DNA of 22,359 bases, taken from a phage. Both the position numbers and the translations under genes were made by a program. The number at the start of each line of letters is the position of its first letter. The first letter of the stretch is position 1. Under the pieces are notes generated by a model that ran no database searches, had not been told where the DNA came from, and worked only from the letters and a program-made list of their open reading frames with translations. The stretch is taken from NCBI GenBank assembly GCA_026686805.1, contig GCA_026686805.1_3949.2. One strand, given 5' to 3'. This document shows, piece by piece, positions 3,504-11,628 of this stretch.

Positions 3504-5870
3504 TTAATCGTAAACTGTTGTACCTTCTGGAACACATTTTACATCAAAGCCTAAGAACTTACTCACTTCGATGGGTGACACTTTATTCCAATCTAAATGA
3601 GAAAGCAAGAAGTTTTCTTGTTTTCTTTTTGAAAGGTATTTTGTCACCTTAATGACCATACGGTCACCAGCTTTCTTAATTTTCTTGTAAAGCTTTGTAT
3701 CATTGTCAAGACAGTCTTTCAAAGTTTTCAATACACTAATAGTATAAGTGTATGCAAATGGTGCAGCAACGTATTGGATTTTACCGAACATAGCCTCTAC
3801 AGCCTCTTCATTACCTTCTAGGAAGATAGTTTTGCTAGTATCTCGTGAATAGCAATAGCCACGAGAAATCTTCCTGTTATTGAACGTAAAGTTTCTGGCA
3901 ATAATCCAACTGCTTGTAAGGTCGAGGACACCATTCATATAGATACGTGTCATATATCTGTTATGATTAATCCAATGAACATCAGTTAAGCTGTCGTTCA
4001 AGAGTTTCTCATCTACTTCAATCCAGTCTTCTGGTATCTTTTTCCAATTTGCTTTTCGGAAAACATAGACTGTCTTCCCTATAACATTAGCAACTGACTT
4101 GGCTACATCTTCTGGAGATGAGCAAAAACATTCACCATCAACTGTGTCACCAACTGCCTTAATGTAAAGCTGAGGTTCTTCAATTGTATCAAAGTCCTCT
4201 GAAACCTCTTTATAGGAAGCTACACCTTCTGCTGGAACAGCTTTCCAGAGTTTTACAACACCTCTTACAGCTTCTTTACGCTGATAGTGATGTTCCTTAT
4301 CAGACATCTTAACAATCTTTAACAAGCTTTTATCAAGTTTGTGTAGATTGATTAAATCATCTAACTCTTTTTCAGTCGAGAATACAAACACAATACCATT
4401 ATATCTGTGAAACAGACTTGACTCACTGGCGTAGTCTCGACATGCACCACGCAGAATCTGATTGCGGCCTACAGTCTTCTCAGTACCATTTTTATTGCGA
4501 CGGTCATTAATCACGAACAAAAACTGTTCAATTTGGCTTTTACGCATTGCGCCAAAGATATTGAACATACTTGCCTCTTGAGTGTAGGAAAGTGCTGTTG
4601 CACGAATCTTACTCTCTAAAGAGTTGAACTTGACATAAGCAACTGGGTTATAAAGATAATCTACTTTAGGGATATTGTTCCCGTTCCTATCAACCTTAAT
4701 ATTGCCTTTACCGTCACGTTCATAAATGACTGAGCCGTCTTCTGCGTAGATAATTCCACGACGAATGTTTAACAATTCTTCTTCCAGAGAATCAAGCTTA
4801 ACGCCTCCCCACTCTAGCTTTGGACACACAGCATTAAACATCTCTCGTGAGTTCAAACGTAGCTCAGCATAAGCCTGTGCAGCATCCATGAGTGTAGGTT
4901 GACTATTAACTTTCTTGATAACATCCTTTGTAATTGCTTCAGTTATCTTTTTGGTAGCCTCGATGATAACATTTTTTGTCGTGTCATTCATCTGCAATGC
5001 TTCACGAGAAGCTGCAATAGCAACTGAACCAATAGGCATGTAGATGTTTACAAGGTCTACGCTCCTACGGAAAAATTCTGGCAATACTTTGAAGAAGTCA
5101 TCACCAAGTAATGCTTCCATATTAACAGGGTAGGCAATGTTACCCATCACCACATTAAACTCTGTCCTGTTACCACTAGAACGCCAGCTTTGCTTATGAA
5201 TCATGGCATCATAAACACCTTCTTCACGGGCAATGACGTTCATATCTGCTAATACATCGTCGTACTCAATATTACTTTCTGGTTTTACAGTGAAGTATGA
5301 GTACACATTCCCAGCTTCTTCAAAGAACTTTGAGATACGGTGGTCAGCAACTGCCACACGTACAGCTAAACCATTAGGTTCTTTTGTTGGGTTAGTTGTC
5401 AGCTTAGTTACTTGAGGGATACCATTCTCAAGATAAACAGAGTACTTATTAACAACACCGTCAACATAGCTAGATACTGTGAATGACTGAGCAATTGCAA
5501 ATGGTGACTTTGAGCCGATACCCATTGCACCAATGTAGTCATTAGAGTCATTCTTCGTAGAAGCTCCATAGTTTAGGTACAAACTCATAACTTTATCATG
5601 AGTCAATCCAGTTCCAAAATCACGAACTTCAAAGTAAGGCTCAAAACGAGTAGGTAAATGCACATGGAACGGGATGTTCTCTTTTCCAGCTTCTTTCTGA
5701 GCATCTACTGCGTTACATGACAGTTCACGAATCACTGCCCTTTCTTTAAAGGTATACACACCAGAACTCAAAAGGCTGAACATCTCAGGTGTCATTGTAA
5801 TCTGTGCTTGAGACGTCTCTAAAGAAGTTGAACTCTTAATCACTTCTGCGTGGTCATTTACCATGCGCAT
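3504..5870 (-). CDS. rIIA: rIIA protein (788 aa) with N-terminal GHKL/Bergerat-fold ATPase-like N-box
   Basis: ATG start confirmed, with AGAGGAAAG Shine-Dalgarno. ELSCNAVDA near residue 50 fits the GHKL N-box (E-x-x-x-N-A-x-D-A). Size and position immediately upstream of rIIB fit rIIA. Confidence 0.8.
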   Translation of the reverse strand: MRMVNDHAEVIKSSTSLETSQAQITMTPEMFSLLSSGVYTFKERAVIRELSCNAVDAQKEAGKENIPFHVHLPTRFEPYFEVRDFGTGLTHDKVMSLYLNYGASTKNDSNDYIGAMGIGSKSPFAIAQSFTVSSYVDGVVNKYSVYLENGIPQVTKLTTNPTKEPNGLAVRVAVADHRISKFFEEAGNVYSYFTVKPESNIEYDDVLADMNVIAREEGVYDAMIHKQSWRSSGNRTEFNVVMGNIAYPVNMEALLGDDFFKVLPEFFRRSVDLVNIYMPIGSVAIAASREALQMNDTTKNVIIEATKKITEAITKDVIKKVNSQPTLMDAAQAYAELRLNSREMFNAVCPKLEWGGVKLDSLEEELLNIRRGIIYAEDGSVIYERDGKGNIKVDRNGNNIPKVDYLYNPVAYVKFNSLESKIRATALSYTQEASMFNIFGAMRKSQIEQFLFVINDRRNKNGTEKTVGRNQILRGACRDYASESSLFHRYNGIVFVFSTEKELDDLINLHKLDKSLLKIVKMSDKEHHYQRKEAVRGVVKLWKAVPAEGVASYKEVSEDFDTIEEPQLYIKAVGDTVDGECFCSSPEDVAKSVANVIGKTVYVFRKANWKKIPEDWIEVDEKLLNDSLTDVHWINHNRYMTRIYMNGVLDLTSSWIIARNFTFNNRKISRGYCYSRDTSKTIFLEGNEEAVEAMFGKIQYVAAPFAYTYTISVLKTLKDCLDNDTKLYKKIKKAGDRMVIKVTKYLSKRKQENFLLSHLDWNKVSPIEVSKFLGFDVKCVPEGTTVYD

Positions 5871-5898
5871 AATACTTTCCTCTTAGTTTACTGTTAAA

Positions 5899-6075
5899 TT
5901 ACTTATTAAACATTTTACCAGAACCACCACACATAGGGCAACAACCTGCTCTTGTATACCCTTCTCCGTTACAGTAGTCACACTTCTTGTGTTCTGCAAA
6001 GTACTTACAAAGAAGATAAACAAGGACTGCTACACTACCAAGTGACAGTAAAATTTCTACCCAATATGCTTGCAT
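5899..6075 (-). CDS. Small membrane protein with C-terminal DnaJ-type zinc-finger repeats (58 aa); not in ORF track
   Basis: Hand-translated: MQAYWVEILLSLGSVAVLVYLLCKYFAEHKKCDYCNGEGYTRAGCCPMCGGSGKMFNK. One hydrophobic helix, then two CxxCxGxG units (CDYCNGEG, CPMCGGSG). GAGGTGAG Shine-Dalgarno 4-11 nt upstream of the ATG. Overlaps the 3' end of the 6057..6392 ORF by 19 nt in another frame. Confidence 0.45.
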   Translation of the reverse strand: MQAYWVEILLSLGSVAVLVYLLCKYFAEHKKCDYCNGEGYTRAGCCPMCGGSGKMFNK

Positions 6076-6392
6076 GACTCACCTCTCATGTTTTTGTAAA
6101 GGATAAAGCTTCTGTCATGGACGATACTTGTAGATACTGCAAAGTTACTTTCAAGCATCTGTTTGTTTGGATTGTAGAAGCTTTCTTTAAACTCGTCAAG
6201 CGCAAATTGGTGATTGTCTGGAAGACCTTTTACACAAACCTTTATTGTGATTGCTGCTGCAATCTTGCCAGTCAGTTCTTCTTTAGCTGCTACTAAAATT
6301 TTGTTAAGGAACTTTTTACCATCTTCAGGTTTCTTAATGTTCTCCCAACGCTCTTCTAAGACAATGTTGATGTTCATCTCTTTGATTTTCAT
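6057..6392 (-). CDS. Hypothetical protein (111 aa)
   Basis: ATG start confirmed. First gene after the 6404..6431 terminator and candidate promoter. No recognisable motif. Confidence 0.5.
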   Translation of the reverse strand: MKIKEMNINIVLEERWENIKKPEDGKKFLNKILVAAKEELTGKIAAAITIKVCVKGLPDNHQFALDEFKESFYNPNKQMLESNFAVSTSIVHDRSFILYKNMRGESCKHIG

Positions 6393-6403
6393 AATCTTCT
6401 CCA

Positions 6404-6431
6404 GAAATTAAAAAGGCTCCCGTAGGAGCCT
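6404..6431 (-). terminator. Intrinsic terminator hairpin (minus RNA AGGCUCC-UACG-GGAGCCU followed by UUUUUAAUUUC)
   Basis: Plus 6414-6431 is aggctcc-cgta-ggagcct, the same stem as the 483-500 hairpin with a different tetraloop. U-tract follows on the minus transcript. Immediately downstream of the NAMPT-like gene. Confidence 0.6.
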
Positions 6432-6434
6432 CTT

Positions 6435-6462
6435 ATCATATACTTTTAAAGCTGCTTGTCAA
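6435..6462 (-). promoter_or_regulatory. Candidate sigma70-like promoter (TTGACA-N16-TATGAT) overlapping the 3' end of the NAMPT-like gene
   Basis: Minus strand: aatatTGACAagcagctttaaaagtaTATGATaagaggctcc; -35 at 6462..6457, -10 at 6440..6435. The transcript would begin inside the terminator hairpin. Confidence 0.3.
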
Positions 6463-8227
6463 TATTATTTCGAATATCGCCAAGAGTTGTGTAGCCGAAC
6501 TGCTCAGAGTCGCTAAAGACTAAACGTAAAGCACAAGCTGGATGCTCAAGTGCATCTGCAAAACTCTGGAATCCATAGCCATCTACAGCTTTCAGATTCT
6601 CACCATCCCACATAGGGGCTACACCACCAAAAGCAGACTTCTTAACACCACTATCTGTTTTAGGGTCTTTTGCAAGCATAATCTCTTTACCACCAATGCT
6701 TGCAAGAGTTGCTTTGACAGCAAATGCAAAGGTGTCACGAGTCATGTACTGGTAAGTGTAGGAACCTACACCAAACACTACGTTAGAGCTTGCAAAACCC
6801 ATTTCATACAAACGCTTAAGGATTTCGTTTGCACGTTCCAACGTGATAGAGTCACCATAGATAAGGCCAATGTGCTCATCCAGTACCTTAAAACCTTTAG
6901 AGTTGATAGTCCCTCCAAAGATGTTGTACAGTGTCTTAATAGCTCCATCAATCTCAGCTACAGGGCGTGTTACAACGTTTGCAGAACCAACCATATAAGC
7001 GTTCTTCAACATCACTGTATCAGCAACTTCAAAGTCTTCTCTGTCAACAACCATTTCATAGCCTTCTGACAGTAGCCATCCAGCAATACCATAGTTGATG
7101 TTTTCAAGCTTCATGTTCAGAACAGCATTCAACATTGTGTCGCTGGCTTCCAGCTTGCTAAGGTGCTCATAATAAGCCTTTTTAGCACACTCTAAGTGGA
7201 TTGCTTTATAACCTGTGACAATATGTACAGGGTCTCCAGAGTCAGGACGAATTACCAGTTTACCGTCACGTTCCATAATCTCTTTGCGAAGTGCTGGTAA
7301 GATTTCTGACACAGTTCTCCAGAAGTTATAAGTGTCTGAAACAACACTTGCAATACCAGTTGGGTAAGTTTCTGTTAAGAAACGACGGAAGGTTTGTAAC
7401 TCACCTTTAAAGCGTCTTTCTTCTTCAATCAACTCATTACCACCTTCCCAAGCAATGTTTGCACACATTACAGAGTGCTCAGTGGCTGGTACAGAACTAC
7501 CAATATCAGAAATTGGGTAAGACTGTCCATAGATGCGTTTAGCCGTGTATACAGCAGGGAAACTATCAGTTCCTTTAAAGCTGGTTAAGTGACCTACAGC
7601 ATTAAATGCGTCATCGGTAAAGCCGGACATACCACGCATAGCAAAGTCATGGCACTGATAAGGTAAATGTAAGTCATTGTCGCAAGTAAGGTCAGCCCAC
7701 TTCTTACAGATACGTTTGTAGTGCAATGCAATAGTTGCAATGGTACAAGCCTTCCAAATCTCAGCAGAGAAAGCATCTTCCAGATACCCCGCTACCCAAT
7801 GGAAACCTGAAACAGTGTTCTGGAAGACAATTATTGGTACACGCATAGGAACAACTGTGCCTTCTTCTACAGCGTATACTTCAACTGGCAGATAACCTAA
7901 GTCGTGAAGTGCTTCCCAATGCTCTCGACCAATAGCATCTTTACCCAGAACACCGTTCATGACTTCTAATATTTCGTCAATTGCTTCTTTTTTGTCACGT
8001 TCAAAGAAGGTGGCGTTCCAGTGGTCTATCAGGTAATCTTTAACAAAACGTTGAATACCAAAAGCAACTACACCATCAATTGCTAAGGGGCTGTTAAACC
8101 ATTTGTCACTACGTGGTGTCAGGTTGAACATCAAGTACTCTGTTGCGCTAGGATACTGGTAGATGTGACCAGATTTGTAAGCATCTGCGTTTAAACCTGC
8201 TGGTACTGCATAAAGTGATTTAGTCAT
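6446..8227 (-). CDS. Nicotinamide phosphoribosyltransferase-family protein (NAMPT-like; candidate NARP1 Namat), 593 aa
   Basis: ATG start confirmed. N-terminal ...NADAYKSGHIYQYPSATEY...FNLTPR tracks the NAMPT N-terminal signature as I recall it from human NAMPT ([27 protein letters not shown]). Same orientation as, and 45 nt downstream of, the PRPP-synthetase-like gene. Confidence 0.8.
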   Translation of the reverse strand: MTKSLYAVPAGLNADAYKSGHIYQYPSATEYLMFNLTPRSDKWFNSPLAIDGVVAFGIQRFVKDYLIDHWNATFFERDKKEAIDEILEVMNGVLGKDAIGREHWEALHDLGYLPVEVYAVEEGTVVPMRVPIIVFQNTVSGFHWVAGYLEDAFSAEIWKACTIATIALHYKRICKKWADLTCDNDLHLPYQCHDFAMRGMSGFTDDAFNAVGHLTSFKGTDSFPAVYTAKRIYGQSYPISDIGSSVPATEHSVMCANIAWEGGNELIEEERRFKGELQTFRRFLTETYPTGIASVVSDTYNFWRTVSEILPALRKEIMERDGKLVIRPDSGDPVHIVTGYKAIHLECAKKAYYEHLSKLEASDTMLNAVLNMKLENINYGIAGWLLSEGYEMVVDREDFEVADTVMLKNAYMVGSANVVTRPVAEIDGAIKTLYNIFGGTINSKGFKVLDEHIGLIYGDSITLERANEILKRLYEMGFASSNVVFGVGSYTYQYMTRDTFAFAVKATLASIGGKEIMLAKDPKTDSGVKKSAFGGVAPMWDGENLKAVDGYGFQSFADALEHPACALRLVFSDSEQFGYTTLGDIRNNIDKQL

Positions 8228-8247
8228 CTTTTAATCTCTCTCAAAAT

Positions 8248-8263
8248 GGGGCTTTTAAGCCCC
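8248..8263 (-). other. GC-rich hairpin GGGGC-UUAAAA-GCCCC between the PRPS-like and NAMPT-like genes; no clean U-tract
   Basis: Perfect 5-bp inverted repeat ggggc/gcccc with a 6-nt loop. Downstream minus RNA is AUUUUGAGAGAG (the Shine-Dalgarno of the NAMPT-like gene). Same design as the rIIA/rIIB hairpin. Confidence 0.45.
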
Positions 8264-8272
8264 TATAAACTT

Positions 8273-9154
8273 TCAATCAAGGTTTGCTACAGTAACTTGA
8301 CTGTAATGTGTTAAGCCACGGTCTTTAGCTTCGCCTAAAGAGTTTGTAGTGTAAATATGGTCGATACCATTGTCAAGAAGGTTTTCAACATCTTTAGAGA
8401 AGATACCATGTGTTACATAAAGTTCCACACGTTTTGCACCTGCTTCACGAAGATGTTTCGCTGCTTCTATGAAGGTTCGACCACCATCACAGATATCATC
8501 CAGAATCATAACGGTTTTATCTGTCAAATCAACATCATCAAGGATTCGCATACCAGTAATTTCACCAGTCTTAAGGTTACGCACCTTAGACATTGTGATA
8601 TATGGTTTATCCACCTCTTTAGCGGTCTCTGCAACCTTCTTAGCAGCACCTGCATCTGGGGCTACTAAGTAATCAACCAGTGGGTCATTTGCATAGTGGA
8701 CTGCAATCTCCTTTTGAGGAATACTCTGGAAGCAGTTAAACAGGTTATCTGGAACGCAACTGTGAGGGTCAACTGCACAGACTGCACCAAATCCCATTGC
8801 ATTTACCTGTTTAGCAAAAACCTTTAAAGCTGCTGCGTCGCCTTTAAACATGTGACGGTCATATCGTGCATTTGGTAAGTAGTAAAAGATGACAGTCTTT
8901 AAAGCATAATCATGAGGAATTAAATCATCAATTGCTTCTTTAGCAAGTGCCACAGCAAACAAAGTGTCCTTATCATAACCTTTTACAATCATAATCACAT
9001 TGTTGATGGATGATGCTGCATAAGCAGTAAAATCAACAAACTCTGGCGAAAAGTGTCCACCAATCTCACCAGAAGGGAATTGGACGATGTTAAACTCTTC
9101 TTCATGAGTCCCTTTAGTTGGTGAATGAACTGTAACACGGATAGATGTTTTCAT
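8273..9154 (-). CDS. Ribose-phosphate pyrophosphokinase-family protein (PRPP synthetase-like; candidate NARP1 Adps), about 293 aa
   Basis: Track ORF starts at a TTG (9169); ATG at 9154 (MKTSIRVTVH) has a GAGAGAGAAAACT Shine-Dalgarno. PRPS-type motifs present: VDPHS, VAPDAGAAKKV and the PRPP-binding loop ILDDICDGGRT. Confidence 0.8.
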   Translation of the reverse strand: MKTSIRVTVHSPTKGTHEEEFNIVQFPSGEIGGHFSPEFVDFTAYAASSINNVIMIVKGYDKDTLFAVALAKEAIDDLIPHDYALKTVIFYYLPNARYDRHMFKGDAAALKVFAKQVNAMGFGAVCAVDPHSCVPDNLFNCFQSIPQKEIAVHYANDPLVDYLVAPDAGAAKKVAETAKEVDKPYITMSKVRNLKTGEITGMRILDDVDLTDKTVMILDDICDGGRTFIEAAKHLREAGAKRVELYVTHGIFSKDVENLLDNGIDHIYTTNSLGEAKDRGLTHYSQVTVANLD

Positions 9155-9165
9155 AGTTTTCTCTC

Positions 9166-9444
9166 TCAATCAAAAGTTACGTTTGTTACTGCCATTGCAG
9201 ATTTGCATTTTGCAGGGTCTACAACGTGATAAAGTACACTACAGTTACCTGTGCTGTCTGGTACAGGCTTTACCCATTGCTGCTTTATAGTTGGCTCTCC
9301 TAAGTCTTTGTAAGAGCCATCTGTAAAGTTGTTTACCATCTCAAGTGCAATTGGTTCTGGAACATGACCACGTATCATGTACATCTCACAACCATTACCA
9401 CCTTCACTGACTAATGGTAAAATTTCCCACTTTTCTTTAGCCAT
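9166..9444 (-). CDS. Hypothetical protein (92 aa)
   Basis: ATG start confirmed. ATGGCTAA-type 8-nt overlap with the upstream gene; ends 11 nt before the PRPS-like ATG. No recognisable motif. Confidence 0.5.
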   Translation of the reverse strand: MAKEKWEILPLVSEGGNGCEMYMIRGHVPEPIALEMVNNFTDGSYKDLGEPTIKQQWVKPVPDSTGNCSVLYHVVDPAKCKSAMAVTNVTFD

Positions 9445-9952
9445 TATAAGTTGCCCTATAAACTGTCTCGAACTTCAACAGGAGAGATATTGCCAAAGCT
9501 GTATAGTTGTTGTCAAGCACGTCTGGCATATTATTTTTGATATATTTCTCTTGCTCTTCATAGGTCATCTTAGGAATACTTAGGAGGCTATCTCCTTGCT
9601 TCTGGTTATCAGCTTTAGTTTGGATAAACCAGTTCGCACAGTGATGTTCACCACCTTTTGTAACAGGTTTGTGGTGGCCTAGTGTAAATGTTTGCTTACC
9701 CGTATACCTGCAAAGATTGTTCAGTGTTGCAATGGTGTTCTTCACAACACACCATTCATACAGGTTATCTATTGTGTAGTGTGGGTAATAACGGACAAGC
9801 GCTCTTTCACGGAAGTTATCACGATTCCAAAGAACCATGTGATTAGAATTTGAAGGGTCATATTTGTGGGAGTCTATAAATTCTTGACGCTCATCAAAGC
9901 TGAGTCTTAGAACTGACATTGCAACCGAACGTTTCAGGTTTGACAGATACAT
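9437..9952 (-). CDS. Hypothetical protein (171 aa), possible HNH-like nuclease motif
   Basis: ATG start confirmed. GHHKPVTKGGEHHCANW resembles the HH...GG...N core of HNH nucleases, but the final His is not evident. First gene after the 9962..9990 terminator. Confidence 0.5.
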   Translation of the reverse strand: MYLSNLKRSVAMSVLRLSFDERQEFIDSHKYDPSNSNHMVLWNRDNFRERALVRYYPHYTIDNLYEWCVVKNTIATLNNLCRYTGKQTFTLGHHKPVTKGGEHHCANWFIQTKADNQKQGDSLLSIPKMTYEEQEKYIKNNMPDVLDNNYTALAISLLLKFETVYRATYNG

Positions 9953-9961
9953 TTTACCTCC

Positions 9962-9990
9962 AAAATAAAAAGGGAACCTTTACAGTTCCC
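9962..9990 (-). terminator. Intrinsic terminator hairpin (minus RNA GGGAAC-loop-GUUCCC followed by UUUUUAUUUUGG)
   Basis: Plus 9972-9990 is gggaac-ctttaca-gttccc (6-bp stem), preceded on plus by aaaataaaaa. Sits between the stop of the 10004..10324 gene and the 9952 ATG. Confidence 0.55.
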
Positions 9991-10003
9991 CTATAGTATC
10001 TGT

Positions 10004-10324
10004 TTACTGAGCTACTTTCAAGAGGCTTGTGAATGGAATCTCACTCTCATCCATAAGCTCTTTTGCTTTTCCAGTAACTTTTACAAAGTTATCTAGGCAG
10101 ATAATCTTCTTATCTTTCTTGCTGTAGGTCAGTTTCACCTTTTCAATATCTTTCTTAGAGCTTTCCTCTTCATTAAAGAGCTTCACAGCTTCTTTGAATG
10201 GAAGGTATGAGCCATCATCATCACTAATAAAACCTGTGCCGCAATAGTAGAAGTTATATTCTTTAGCCATAAACTGGCACAGTACGAAAATCTGTAATTT
10301 GCGAGTGTTATAAACTTTGCTCAT
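10004..10324 (-). CDS. Hypothetical protein (106 aa)
   Basis: ATG start confirmed. 2-nt gap to the upstream gene. No recognisable motif. Confidence 0.5.
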   Translation of the reverse strand: MSKVYNTRKLQIFVLCQFMAKEYNFYYCGTGFISDDDGSYLPFKEAVKLFNEEESSKKDIEKVKLTYSKKDKKIICLDNFVKVTGKAKELMDESEIPFTSLLKVAQ

Positions 10325-10326
10325 GA

Positions 10327-10593
10327 TTATTTAGCCTTCTTATTGCGTTTACGGTTACGAGCTTTCTTGGCTGCTCGTTTAATAGCTGCTGCACCAGACG
10401 GACGGTGGGCTTGTTTCTTACCACCTTTGCCACGGCCTACATAGATGTAAGGTTGCTGTTCAATTTGGCTTGTAAGAACTTGTGCAACTGCTGAAGCATC
10501 TACACCAACCTGCTTTCCAGTCATAGAAATGATTGCTGCTGCTTTTGCCAGTGCCTTCAAGAAGCCAGCTTTCATATTACCTAAAATTCCCAT
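10327..10593 (-). CDS. Small basic protein (88 aa from second ATG) with Lys/Arg-rich C-terminal tail
   Basis: Track start ATG at 10608 lacks a Shine-Dalgarno; ATG at 10593 (MGILGNMKAG...) has GAGAGG 5 nt upstream. C-terminus GRGKGGKKQAHRPSGAAAIKRAAKKARNRKRNKKAK is strongly basic. Confidence 0.5.
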   Translation of the reverse strand: MGILGNMKAGFLKALAKAAAIISMTGKQVGVDASAVAQVLTSQIEQQPYIYVGRGKGGKKQAHRPSGAAAIKRAAKKARNRKRNKKAK

Positions 10594-10621
10594 TTTAGCC
10601 TCTCTCATTAAAGTTTAATAC

Positions 10622-10638
10622 AGAACTTATGAAGTTCT
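10622..10638. other. Perfect 7-bp inverted repeat agaactt-atg-aagttct in the nrdG-downstream intergenic region
   Basis: Read directly from the sequence. Only a weak U-rich run follows on the minus transcript, so function (attenuator, processing site or binding site) is unknown. Confidence 0.4.
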
Positions 10639-10688
10639 TCTTCAGTGATACCAATTGGAGTTATACCTTAGTCCATTTGCCAGAATAA

Positions 10689-11174
10689 TCACTCTGCTCT
10701 CCACTGACAATCACCTTGCCATCCGTACTCTTTTCTCCAGAGGTTTTGGTTATCTGAACCACGATACGGTTTAACTGTTGGTTTAGATGAATCATACTTA
10801 CCATCAATCACCACGTCAACATATTTCATCACATCTAAGTGGATTTTTTCGTGCAGTTGAAAACCTGTCCAAAGCCATATAGACTTTTCTGGATAAACAG
10901 TTTTAATACGCTTACATATGTTGGTAACCTCTTGAATATTTCTATCATCCAGAGGCTCTCCACCGAGTATTGACAACCCACTGATGGCATCATCATCCAT
11001 TAACTTAATGATACCGTAGAGGTTTGCATAAGTAAACTCTTTACCAGCATTAAACTTCCAAGACTCCCTGTTAAAGCAGCCTTCGCAGTGATGCTTACAA
11101 CCAGCTACGAAGAGGCTTACACGAACCCCTTCACCATTAGCTGTGTCAAATGGCCTAATCTCCATGTAATTCAT
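10689..11174 (-). CDS. nrdG: Anaerobic ribonucleotide reductase activating protein (radical-SAM activase), 161 aa
   Basis: ATG start confirmed, with GAGGT Shine-Dalgarno. CKHHCEGC is a CX3CX2C radical-SAM cluster motif near the N-terminus. Size and position near nrdD fit NrdG. Confidence 0.8.
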   Translation of the reverse strand: MNYMEIRPFDTANGEGVRVSLFVAGCKHHCEGCFNRESWKFNAGKEFTYANLYGIIKLMDDDAISGLSILGGEPLDDRNIQEVTNICKRIKTVYPEKSIWLWTGFQLHEKIHLDVMKYVDVVIDGKYDSSKPTVKPYRGSDNQNLWRKEYGWQGDCQWRAE

Positions 11175-11232
11175 CTAGTTACCTCACCAATAAATATAAA
11201 CGTTCTTTAACCTTTTCTTCGAATTGTTTTAC

Positions 11233-11628
11233 TCATTCAAACACCACCTGACAAGGAACCTGTTTAGTAATAAATTCTTCACAGTGCTCTTTAATGAAGT
11301 TTTGTAATGGTACACAATCTTGTGCGCAAGTCATTAGCATAATGTACTCTGGATTCATGATGTTTTCAAGACTGTAGAAGACAACATTATCAGATAGTTC
11401 GTGACCATCTTCTTCAGACCAAGTTCCAGTGACTACAGCTAATTTGTCAAGCAATTCATTAGGCAATGCTACACCATCTTCTACAGAATCACTTAGAACA
11501 TTGTCGCCAATATACAATGTGAAGACCGTGTGGAATGTTGAGTATCTTACGTGATTCTTTTCACAAGAGCCACACTCTGAGGCATAATCTTTAATCCACT
11601 CTAACTGTTTTTGGCTTAACTTAATCAT
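11233..11628 (-). CDS. Hypothetical protein (131 aa)
   Basis: ATG start confirmed. ATGA start/stop overlap with the upstream 66-aa gene. Several Cys residues but no recognised motif. Confidence 0.5.
   Translation of the reverse strand: MIKLSQKQLEWIKDYASECGSCEKNHVRYSTFHTVFTLYIGDNVLSDSVEDGVALPNELLDKLAVVTGTWSEEDGHELSDNVVFYSLENIMNPEYIMLMTCAQDCVPLQNFIKEHCEEFITKQVPCQVVFE

Follow-up and report, generated by a model that had tools for sequence, protein, structure and literature searches.

NARP1 and two separable small genes share a cassette between conserved terminator-like hairpins in a Felixounavirus

The window analysed here is a stretch of 22,359 nucleotides (nt) of phage DNA (contig GCA_026686805.1_3949.2 of assembly GCA_026686805.1), and the element under study lies at positions 6404-9990, where four genes stand between two hairpin terminators. 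The whole window is 96-97% identical to sequenced Felixounavirus genomes and is assigned to this genus. The four genes probably form a compact cassette of Felixounavirus middle genes that consists of three independently exchangeable modules, namely a gene for a 171-amino-acid (aa) HNH-like protein, a gene for a 92-aa protein and the gene pair Adps-Namat, placed between two conserved terminator hairpins. The pair is, by homology, the known two-enzyme NAD+ reconstitution pathway 1 (NARP1) and would rebuild nicotinamide adenine dinucleotide (NAD+) from ADP-ribose (ADPR) and nicotinamide once NAD+-depleting defences fire. The HNH-type protein would act independently of NARP1, and the small genes would lie beside the pair because all are housed in the variable nrdG-to-rIIA region of auxiliary and counter-defence genes, rather than because they share a pathway. 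Most of the locus is already published for a near-identical phage; what remains novel is how the HNH-like protein works, together with the orphan 92-aa protein and an arrangement in which promoters abut terminators.

From 5000 to 11500, every gene is encoded on the minus strand. In the direction of transcription, the cassette comprises the gene of the 171-aa protein (9952..9437), the gene of the 92-aa protein (9444..9166, family phrog_4726), Adps (9154..8273, ATG start), coding for a Prs-like (PRPS-like) ADP-ribose pyrophosphokinase that is the first NARP1 enzyme, and Namat (8227..6446), coding for the second, a NAMPT-like nicotinamide ADP-ribose transferase. An earlier note on this DNA, made from the letters alone, had placed exactly these four genes between two hairpin terminators, joined by an 8-nt overlap and an 11-nt gap. 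This layout is borne out: the overlap, between the two small genes, is ATGGCTAA, the gap, before the Prs-like gene, has the length given, and the positions of both hairpins and of their T-tracts agree with those of the note. An in-frame TTG at 9169 is an alternative start of Adps that would give a 4-nt overlap with the 92-aa gene in place of the gap. Adps and Namat are separated by 45 nt. Both small open reading frames (ORFs) are real genes, as their ratios of nonsynonymous to synonymous substitution rates (Ka/Ks) are 0.08-0.26 against diverged relatives. The gene order is shared with the record of Bas63 (JohannRWettstein, MZ501086), where bas63_0077 (171 aa) and bas63_0078 (92 aa) stand directly upstream of bas63_0079/bas63_0080, preceded by nrdG and a DUF7390 gene and followed by a 111-aa gene and rIIA. 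Gene by gene, from the 171-aa protein to Namat, the window is 88, 100, 78 and 98% identical to Bas63 gp77, gp78, g79 and g80, and the relation between the two phages is that of a mosaic.

The NARP1 assignment rests on two adjacent homologs of Bas63 g79 and g80 in the same order, PRPS-like and NAMPT-like, whose products match the Pfam families Pribosyl_synth and Pribosyltran (Adps) and NAPRTase and NAMPT_N (Namat). The original description of NARP1 is that of an operon of two genes in Bas63 (genes 79 and 80) that rebuilds NAD+ from ADPR and nicotinamide and defeats the Sir2-HerA defence (10.1101/2024.02.11.579819). The conversion of ADPR to ADPR-PP and then to NAD+ was shown for the SpbetaL1 homologs and inferred for Bas63 from metabolomics; two purified SpbetaL1 enzymes reconstituted the pathway in vitro, and it was active when knocked into phage SBSphiJ (10.1101/2024.02.11.579819). 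The same enzymatic activities are predicted for the Adps and Namat of the window. In genes, order, genus and flanking genes, nothing substantive distinguishes the window from the Bas63 locus of Osterman et al. NARP1 was published as two genes, whereas the earlier note stretched the unit upstream by two more, which the published genetics do not implicate. The window Namat (593 aa) aligns end to end with the 500-position PHROG NAMPT profile and thus has roughly 90-100 extra residues. Its Pfam NAPRTase match falls in two separated stretches and tblastn alignments to many relatives also come in two pieces, which suggests that Namat carries a lineage-specific insertion.

Small proteins that extend NARP1 are known from other phages. 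Adpp, a Macro-domain ADPR-1''-phosphate phosphatase of the NARP1-AP system of Vibrio phage Gary, feeds the pathway and is carried by 15% of NARP1 operons (10.64898/2026.01.28.702374). RyDEP, a RyR-domain glycosidase of cyclic ADPR that also feeds the pathway, is inserted in the NARP1 operon of mycobacteriophage DyoEdafos (10.64898/2026.05.28.727677). As in the window, extra small genes lie in or beside Adps/Namat in these operons and are probably co-transcribed with them. The earlier note had suggested that the two uncharacterised genes serve the NAD+ module; by analogy with Adpp and RyDEP, they would supply ADPR from other NAD+ breakdown products or immune signals, or regulate the pathway. 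The tight co-directional layout, with its overlap and its short gap, would fit such a role, as would the order 171-aa homolog (44% identity), small gene, Prs, NAMPT that recurs in Kolesnikvirus. An accessory role is nevertheless very unlikely. Adpp and RyDEP have ADPR-binding folds and were shown experimentally to feed NARP1, whereas Pfam and NCBIfam searches gave no Macro, RyR, Nudix or similar ADPR-handling domain in the 171-aa or the 92-aa protein, and the two-gene pathway suffices both in vitro and in a heterologous phage. The small genes are also dispensable against Sir2-HerA. In the published PhageMaP screen of Bas63, which gives three values per gene and host, knockouts of g79 (-2.1/-2.7/-3.0) and g80 (-3.0/-3.1/-3.3) were depleted on this defence and those of g77 (+0.79/0.75/0.87) and g78 (+0.38/0.24/0.10) were not (10.1101/2024.10.10.617714). 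These data show no requirement for g77 or g78 against NAD+ depletion by this defence. The somewhat low Sir2-HerA score of g78 (+0.1 to +0.4) could be read in favour of an accessory part, but the score is similarly variable on unrelated hosts (10.1101/2024.10.10.617714).

Natural phages separate the modules in every combination, as seen from tblastn on 52 fetched loci and a check of annotated records. The earlier note had proposed a synteny check for related phages that carry the Prs/NAMPT pair without the two small genes, and two Felixounaviruses are of this kind. In Salmonella phage S19cd (L007, 5196-5918) and Escherichia phage GEP101 (L008, 4211-4932), Prs and NAMPT are kept and an N6/N4 DNA methyltransferase cassette replaces the residues of the 171-aa protein beyond 38 and, in the 92-aa gene, the first 58 codons; what is left is a chimeric ORF of 58 aa. 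The slot thus swaps an HNH-like gene for a DNA methylase, which in GEP101 is annotated as two ORFs. Locus L030 lost the 92-aa gene via an AATGGC microhomology and kept the 171-aa gene, Adps and Namat. Conversely, both small genes are kept in L020 (8784-8800), where Adps/Namat are cleanly deleted at an TATGAAAA microhomology. In L010 (6001-6243), L011 and P0028, the 171-aa gene is kept, NARP1 is lost and the N-terminus of the 92-aa protein is fused to the C-terminus of the 111-aa protein. The losses of NARP1 in Felix-like phages are independent, one being a clean deletion and the other the recurrent fusion. The fusion keeps the reading frame: the 92-aa gene contributes its first ~34 codons, which run into the 3' part of the 111-aa gene at an 'IAL(E/D)' junction, and two lineages, of 97% and 67% identity, have it (P0028, P0033).

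The distribution of the families likewise argues against a shared pathway. Of the phage records, about 1260 have a Prs-like gene, 429 a member of the 171-aa family and 231 one of the 92-aa family. In Kolesnikvirus, the slot of the 92-aa gene is occupied by an unrelated Cys-rich protein of 98 aa with CxxC and CxCC motifs and no similarity to the 92-aa protein. In Hafnia phage Zyzzx, the 171-aa homolog is separated from Prs by a DUF7390 gene, and there is no counterpart of the 92-aa gene. In the Stephanstirmvirinae (phi92-/phAPEC8-like phages), the 171-aa homolog is found upstream of a DNA helicase gene, among nrd genes; in PD06 it lies at 22.6 kb and a stand-alone NARP1 at 98.7-101.4 kb, about 75 kb away. 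NARP1 is also a stand-alone two-gene unit in phi92-like phages such as PHB05 (L017, 6917-6989), divergent from its upstream neighbours. The association of the two small genes with Adps/Namat holds only within the Ounavirinae and does not recur across unrelated phage lineages.

The 171-aa protein belongs to phrog_3500, a family of unknown function, and has a secondary match to the PHROG HNH family (E 2.6e-6). The HNH-like motif that the earlier note had read in it is supported by conserved residues across 27 homologs, down to 34% identity: H93, G100, G101, H103, N107 and Q111 are invariant and N116 is near-invariant, being kept in at least 90%. Structure prediction, which the note had called for on both small proteins, gave a confident HNH-like AlphaFold2 model of the 171-aa protein (mean predicted local distance difference test, pLDDT, 91.9) with strands at 89-93 and 108-112 and a helix at 113-119, and a weak model of the 92-aa protein (pLDDT 64). 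In the former, the motif residues are predicted to form a beta-beta-alpha-metal element embedded in a helical scaffold. The H-x13-N-x8-N spacing of the motif (H93, N107, N116) is the same as that of the SpCas9 HNH residues H840, N854 and N863. Foldseek searches of the PDB returned HNH domains in 12 of the top 13 matches (Cas9, Gme nickase, McrA) at E values of 0.35-2, none of them significant. Pfam HNH is weakly matched by 4 of the 27 family members, and an NCBIfam IscB match (E 0.026) is below threshold but consistent with HNH. Fold and profile matches, though weak, are best to HNH nucleases (the HNH domain of Cas9/IscB, the Gme HNH nickase and McrA), with which the protein shares an H-N-N motif on a strand-strand-helix element. 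The 171-aa protein has no acidic residue preceding the putative catalytic His and no zinc-binding cysteines.

Other labels for this protein were considered and rejected. The Bas63 homolog is described in the PhageMaP preprint as a 'GIY-YIG catalytic domain protein'. No GIY-YIG signal was found in the family, either by Pfam on the 27 members or by profile and fold searches, and HNH is the better-supported class, since the conserved motif, the beta-beta-alpha element of the model and the matches by profile and by fold all point to it. The 171-aa protein is thus best described as HNH-like and may be a nuclease. A Pfam DUF7167 match (E 0.026) was below threshold and was discarded. The N-terminal helices (residues 15-66, LSFEDRDEFI..YDPSNSN) resemble staphylococcal protein A repeats, with a whole-sequence E value of 1e-8 in a PDB sequence profile search that is inflated by the repeats; this likeness is most likely due to chance because each stretch has an i-Evalue >1 and covers the N-terminal helices only.

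A gene of this type beside the NAD+ genes could be a free-standing HNH homing endonuclease, a selfish element inserted without benefit to the phage. The other option of the earlier note had been an unrelated nuclease that had landed there. Besides the HNH-like motif itself, the abundance of homing endonuclease genes in Felix-like phages (PMC3185647) would favour such an origin, and HNH-endonuclease labels are found nearby in phages wV8 and heid, the label in heid being on the DUF7390 gene and that in wV8 on gene 132. A true homing endonuclease even inserts into the same operon and resembles the 171-aa protein in size and in its HNH motif. This 163-aa AP2-HNH protein (Pfam HNH_3, E 9e-20; sub-threshold AP2, E 0.004) is encoded exactly between Adps and Namat, where it replaces an internal hairpin, in L019 (9689-10180) and in L025, L027, L037, L043 and L047. 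However, it is sporadic, occurring in 6 of the 29 Felix-like loci from IMG/VR, whereas the 171-aa gene is found at the same position in all 29. Among phage records, the 171-aa gene at >=60% identity is present in 247, against about 253-261 with Felix-like Adps or Namat. Its Ka/Ks is about 0.1 and it diverges along with the phages; the family is conserved in Kolesnikvirus and in the Stephanstirmvirinae as well. Pfam searches gave no AP2, NUMOD, IENR or helix-turn-helix DNA-binding module and no HNH_3 match, and the deletion of g77 in Bas63 has a host-dependent fitness phenotype that can be complemented. Together, the constant position, the lack of a DNA-binding module and the phenotype speak against a homing-endonuclease identity, which is highly improbable. 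An unrelated nuclease is closer to the truth in that option of the earlier note; the recent landing is not borne out for what is a syntenic family under purifying selection.

The phenotype of g77 concerns retron Ec67 (Eco2). On this host, the g77 knockout scored -0.29/-0.63/-0.51 and those of g78, g79 and g80 about +0.7 to +1.1; a clean g77 deletion caused a 10-fold loss of plating efficiency, which was complemented (10.1101/2024.10.10.617714). Bas63 gp77, which is 88% identical to the 171-aa protein over its full length and encoded at the same genomic position, protects about 10-fold against Ec67 independently of NARP1. The preprint proposed that it cleaves the retron multicopy single-stranded DNA (msDNA). 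This mechanism is doubtful because later structural work reported that phage nucleases degrading msDNA activate Eco2, unblocking its TOPRIM nuclease and leading to tRNA cutting (PMC12916289). Judged from motif and model, the 171-aa protein may blunt Eco2 as a nucleic-acid enzyme or binder of the HNH type. It could also form a two-gene anti-retron or anti-defence module with the coupled 92-aa protein, Eco2 being neutralised by means other than the destruction of msDNA, for instance by shielding or processing of msDNA or by action on the TOPRIM effector or its tRNA targets, and the 92-aa protein serving as regulator or specificity factor. This proposal is unlikely, and on Ec67 the knockout of g78 lacks the phenotype seen with that of g77 (10.1101/2024.10.10.617714). 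If the proposal were true, a single transcript of the terminator-bounded unit would carry functions against retrons and against NAD+ depletion, and the unit would form a small 'counter-defence island'.

The 92-aa protein is an orphan confined to its lineage, and no role for it is detectable in the Sir2-HerA or Ec67 phenotypes. Its family is restricted to Felix-, Moogle- and Susp-like phages, apart from one remote relative. A profile search of 1.84 billion representative proteins gave a single credible remote homolog, P0057 (84 aa, E 1.7e-5), which comes from an unrelated phage contig; the 8.3 kb retrieved around it there contain neither an Adps nor a Namat homolog. Two further candidates, P0056 and P0058, were discarded as low-complexity artefacts, both being repetitive proteins. 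H27, C68, H73 and C80 are invariant in seven aligned full-length homologs, and P0057 appears by eye to keep all four; this His/Cys tetrad hints at a metal site. The fold matches of the low-confidence model are weak, trigger-factor- or uL23-like, and not interpretable. The conserved overlap with the 171-aa gene suggests translational coupling of the 92-aa gene to it.

Each end of the cassette is marked by an intergenic stem-loop on the coding strand that is rich in GC and runs into a U-tract. The upstream one, found like the other by a consensus scan, comprises a 9-bp stem-loop at 9992-9970 on the minus strand, followed by TTTTATTTT to about 9962. The downstream one has a 10-bp stem-loop at 6434-6411, also on the minus strand, followed by TTTTTAATTT to about 6404. 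Folding gives -12.1 kcal/mol (z -2.6) for the upstream hairpin and -16.6 kcal/mol (z -5.3) for the downstream one, the z scores being relative to shuffled sequences. Both are kept in Felix-, Moogle- and Susp-like relatives. The upstream hairpin corresponds to terminator t124 in Table 2 of the Felix O1 genome paper (PMC3185647). Each hairpin is directly preceded by a sigma-70-like promoter candidate on the same strand. The upstream candidate (10021-9993, TTGAAA-17-TACTAT, 9/12 consensus matches) lies where the DUF7390 gene ends, in its 3' end and stop codon, and has a -10 box that ends one base before the hairpin. Its -35 and -10 boxes are kept across the Felix/Moogle/Susp lineages, with TATGAT as the -10 box. 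The Kolesnikvirus equivalent, TTGCAA-17-TAGTAT, is followed at the same position upstream of the 171-aa gene by a hairpin of another sequence, in the same promoter-hairpin layout. The downstream candidate is strong (6462-6435, TTGACA-16-TATGAT, 11/12 matches), lies within the end of the Namat gene, abuts the hairpin and is kept in every Felix/Moogle/Susp locus that was examined. It would serve as the promoter of the following unit, formed by the 111-aa gene, a 58-aa gene and rIIA. The -35/-10 boxes are retained even at places where the coding sequence that they overlap is diverged. A further composite element is found in the window at 500-483, with TTGCTA-17-TAAGAT upstream of a hairpin. L006 and L019-L048 also have composite elements of this kind, with a sigma-70-like -35/-10 pair that ends 1-2 nt ahead of a hairpin; the layout is kept across Ounavirinae genera with hairpins of different sequence.

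This arrangement would let a promoter's own transcripts escape while those from upstream stop. RNA initiated about 7 nt past the -10 box would have its first base within the 5' arm of the hairpin and could not form the terminator, and a read-through RNA from upstream would form the hairpin and terminate. The Felix O1 genome paper (2010) left the passage of transcription through many terminators unexplained and considered only intergenic promoter candidates (PMC3185647).

Between Adps and Namat lies an additional hairpin that was not in the earlier note, GGGGC-N6-GCCCC at 8263-8248 on the minus strand, followed by AUUUUG to 8243. Its folding energy (-11.5 kcal/mol, z -2.5) is similar to that of the upstream terminator. 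In Felix-, Moogle- and Susp-like phages, its stem is conserved and its loop variable; it is missing where the AP2-HNH homing endonuclease gene sits between Adps and Namat. The hairpin is a candidate attenuator setting the Adps:Namat ratio, or a candidate RNA-stability element. After Adps, a hairpin is present in Hafnia phage Zyzzx too, and the Prs-NAMPT spacer of PHB05 contains a promoter-like sequence, TTGACA...TAAGAT, overlapping a hairpin.

Whether the four genes are transcribed as one discrete unit depends on how these elements are read. The earlier note had held the small genes to be likely co-expressed with the NAD+ module. The common orientation, the coupled overlap and the conserved flanking terminators make this co-expression plausible, and it is from them that we infer a single transcript. 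By reverse transcription PCR, Felix O1 ORFs 124-130 all fall in the 'middle' class (PMC3185647). ORFs 125-128 probably correspond to the four genes, an assignment made because of the position of terminator t124. The shared class is compatible with co-expression of the four genes but is not specific to them. The hairpins might instead be leaky attenuators or RNA-stability elements in one long middle transcript that extends from the nrd genes as far as rIIA, or the internal hairpin and internal promoters might split the unit. The single temporal class of Felix O1 ORFs 124-130, together with the terminator passage that its authors could not explain, is in line with this, and so is the position of the next ribosome-binding site 10-25 nt after each terminator, which leaves too little space for a promoter downstream of it. 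Terminator-like sites in the window are in little excess over shuffled sequences (18 observed against 12.2 expected, standard deviation 3.1). On the other hand, the conserved -35/-10 boxes that abut both bracketing hairpins are placed for starts inside the 5' arm, the hairpin and T-tract are kept across genera despite sequence change, and the strong coding-strand hairpins of the window, six of comparable kind, are all in intergenic gaps. A long or split transcript is possible but less likely.

Several observations weigh against the cassette reading as a whole. The internal Adps-Namat hairpin is about as stable as the upstream terminator, promoter-like sites occur within the unit, for instance at 9471-9443, and the flanking genes share the temporal class, so that the transcript may be longer, shorter or multiple. 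Within the Ounavirinae, the 171-aa gene lies near Prs in three lineages: in Felix-like phages and Kolesnikvirus it directly precedes the 92-aa slot, and in Zyzzx it is two genes upstream of Prs. The available tests cover Sir2-HerA and a limited defence panel, and the small proteins may have a conditional NARP1-accessory role against other NAD+-cleaving systems (aRES, Thoeris). The anti-retron effect is modest, comes from a single preprint and was measured in Bas63 rather than in the window phage, and the msDNA-cleavage model proposed for it conflicts with the activation of Eco2 by msDNA degradation (PMC12916289).

The gene directly upstream of the cassette (10004-10324, minus strand) codes for a 106-aa protein matching Pfam DUF7390 (E 1.2e-16) and exists as two diverged alleles among close relatives, of about 90% and about 50% identity. 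In phage heid it carries the label 'putative HNH homing endonuclease', and PhageMaP lists it (g76) as 'HNH endonuclease*'; these HNH labels are probably the result of annotation drift.

For the mining of NARP1 neighbourhoods for accessory enzymes, the locus provides a clean negative, as the 171-aa and 92-aa families can be discounted. It also calls for a correction of annotation, the family of Bas63 gp77 looking HNH-like and not GIY-YIG, and it sets apart the 92-aa family as a true orphan with its single remote relative among the proteins searched. Finally, the conserved promoters abutting terminators offer a possible answer to the question raised by the Felix O1 genome paper of how transcription passes the many terminators of these phages.

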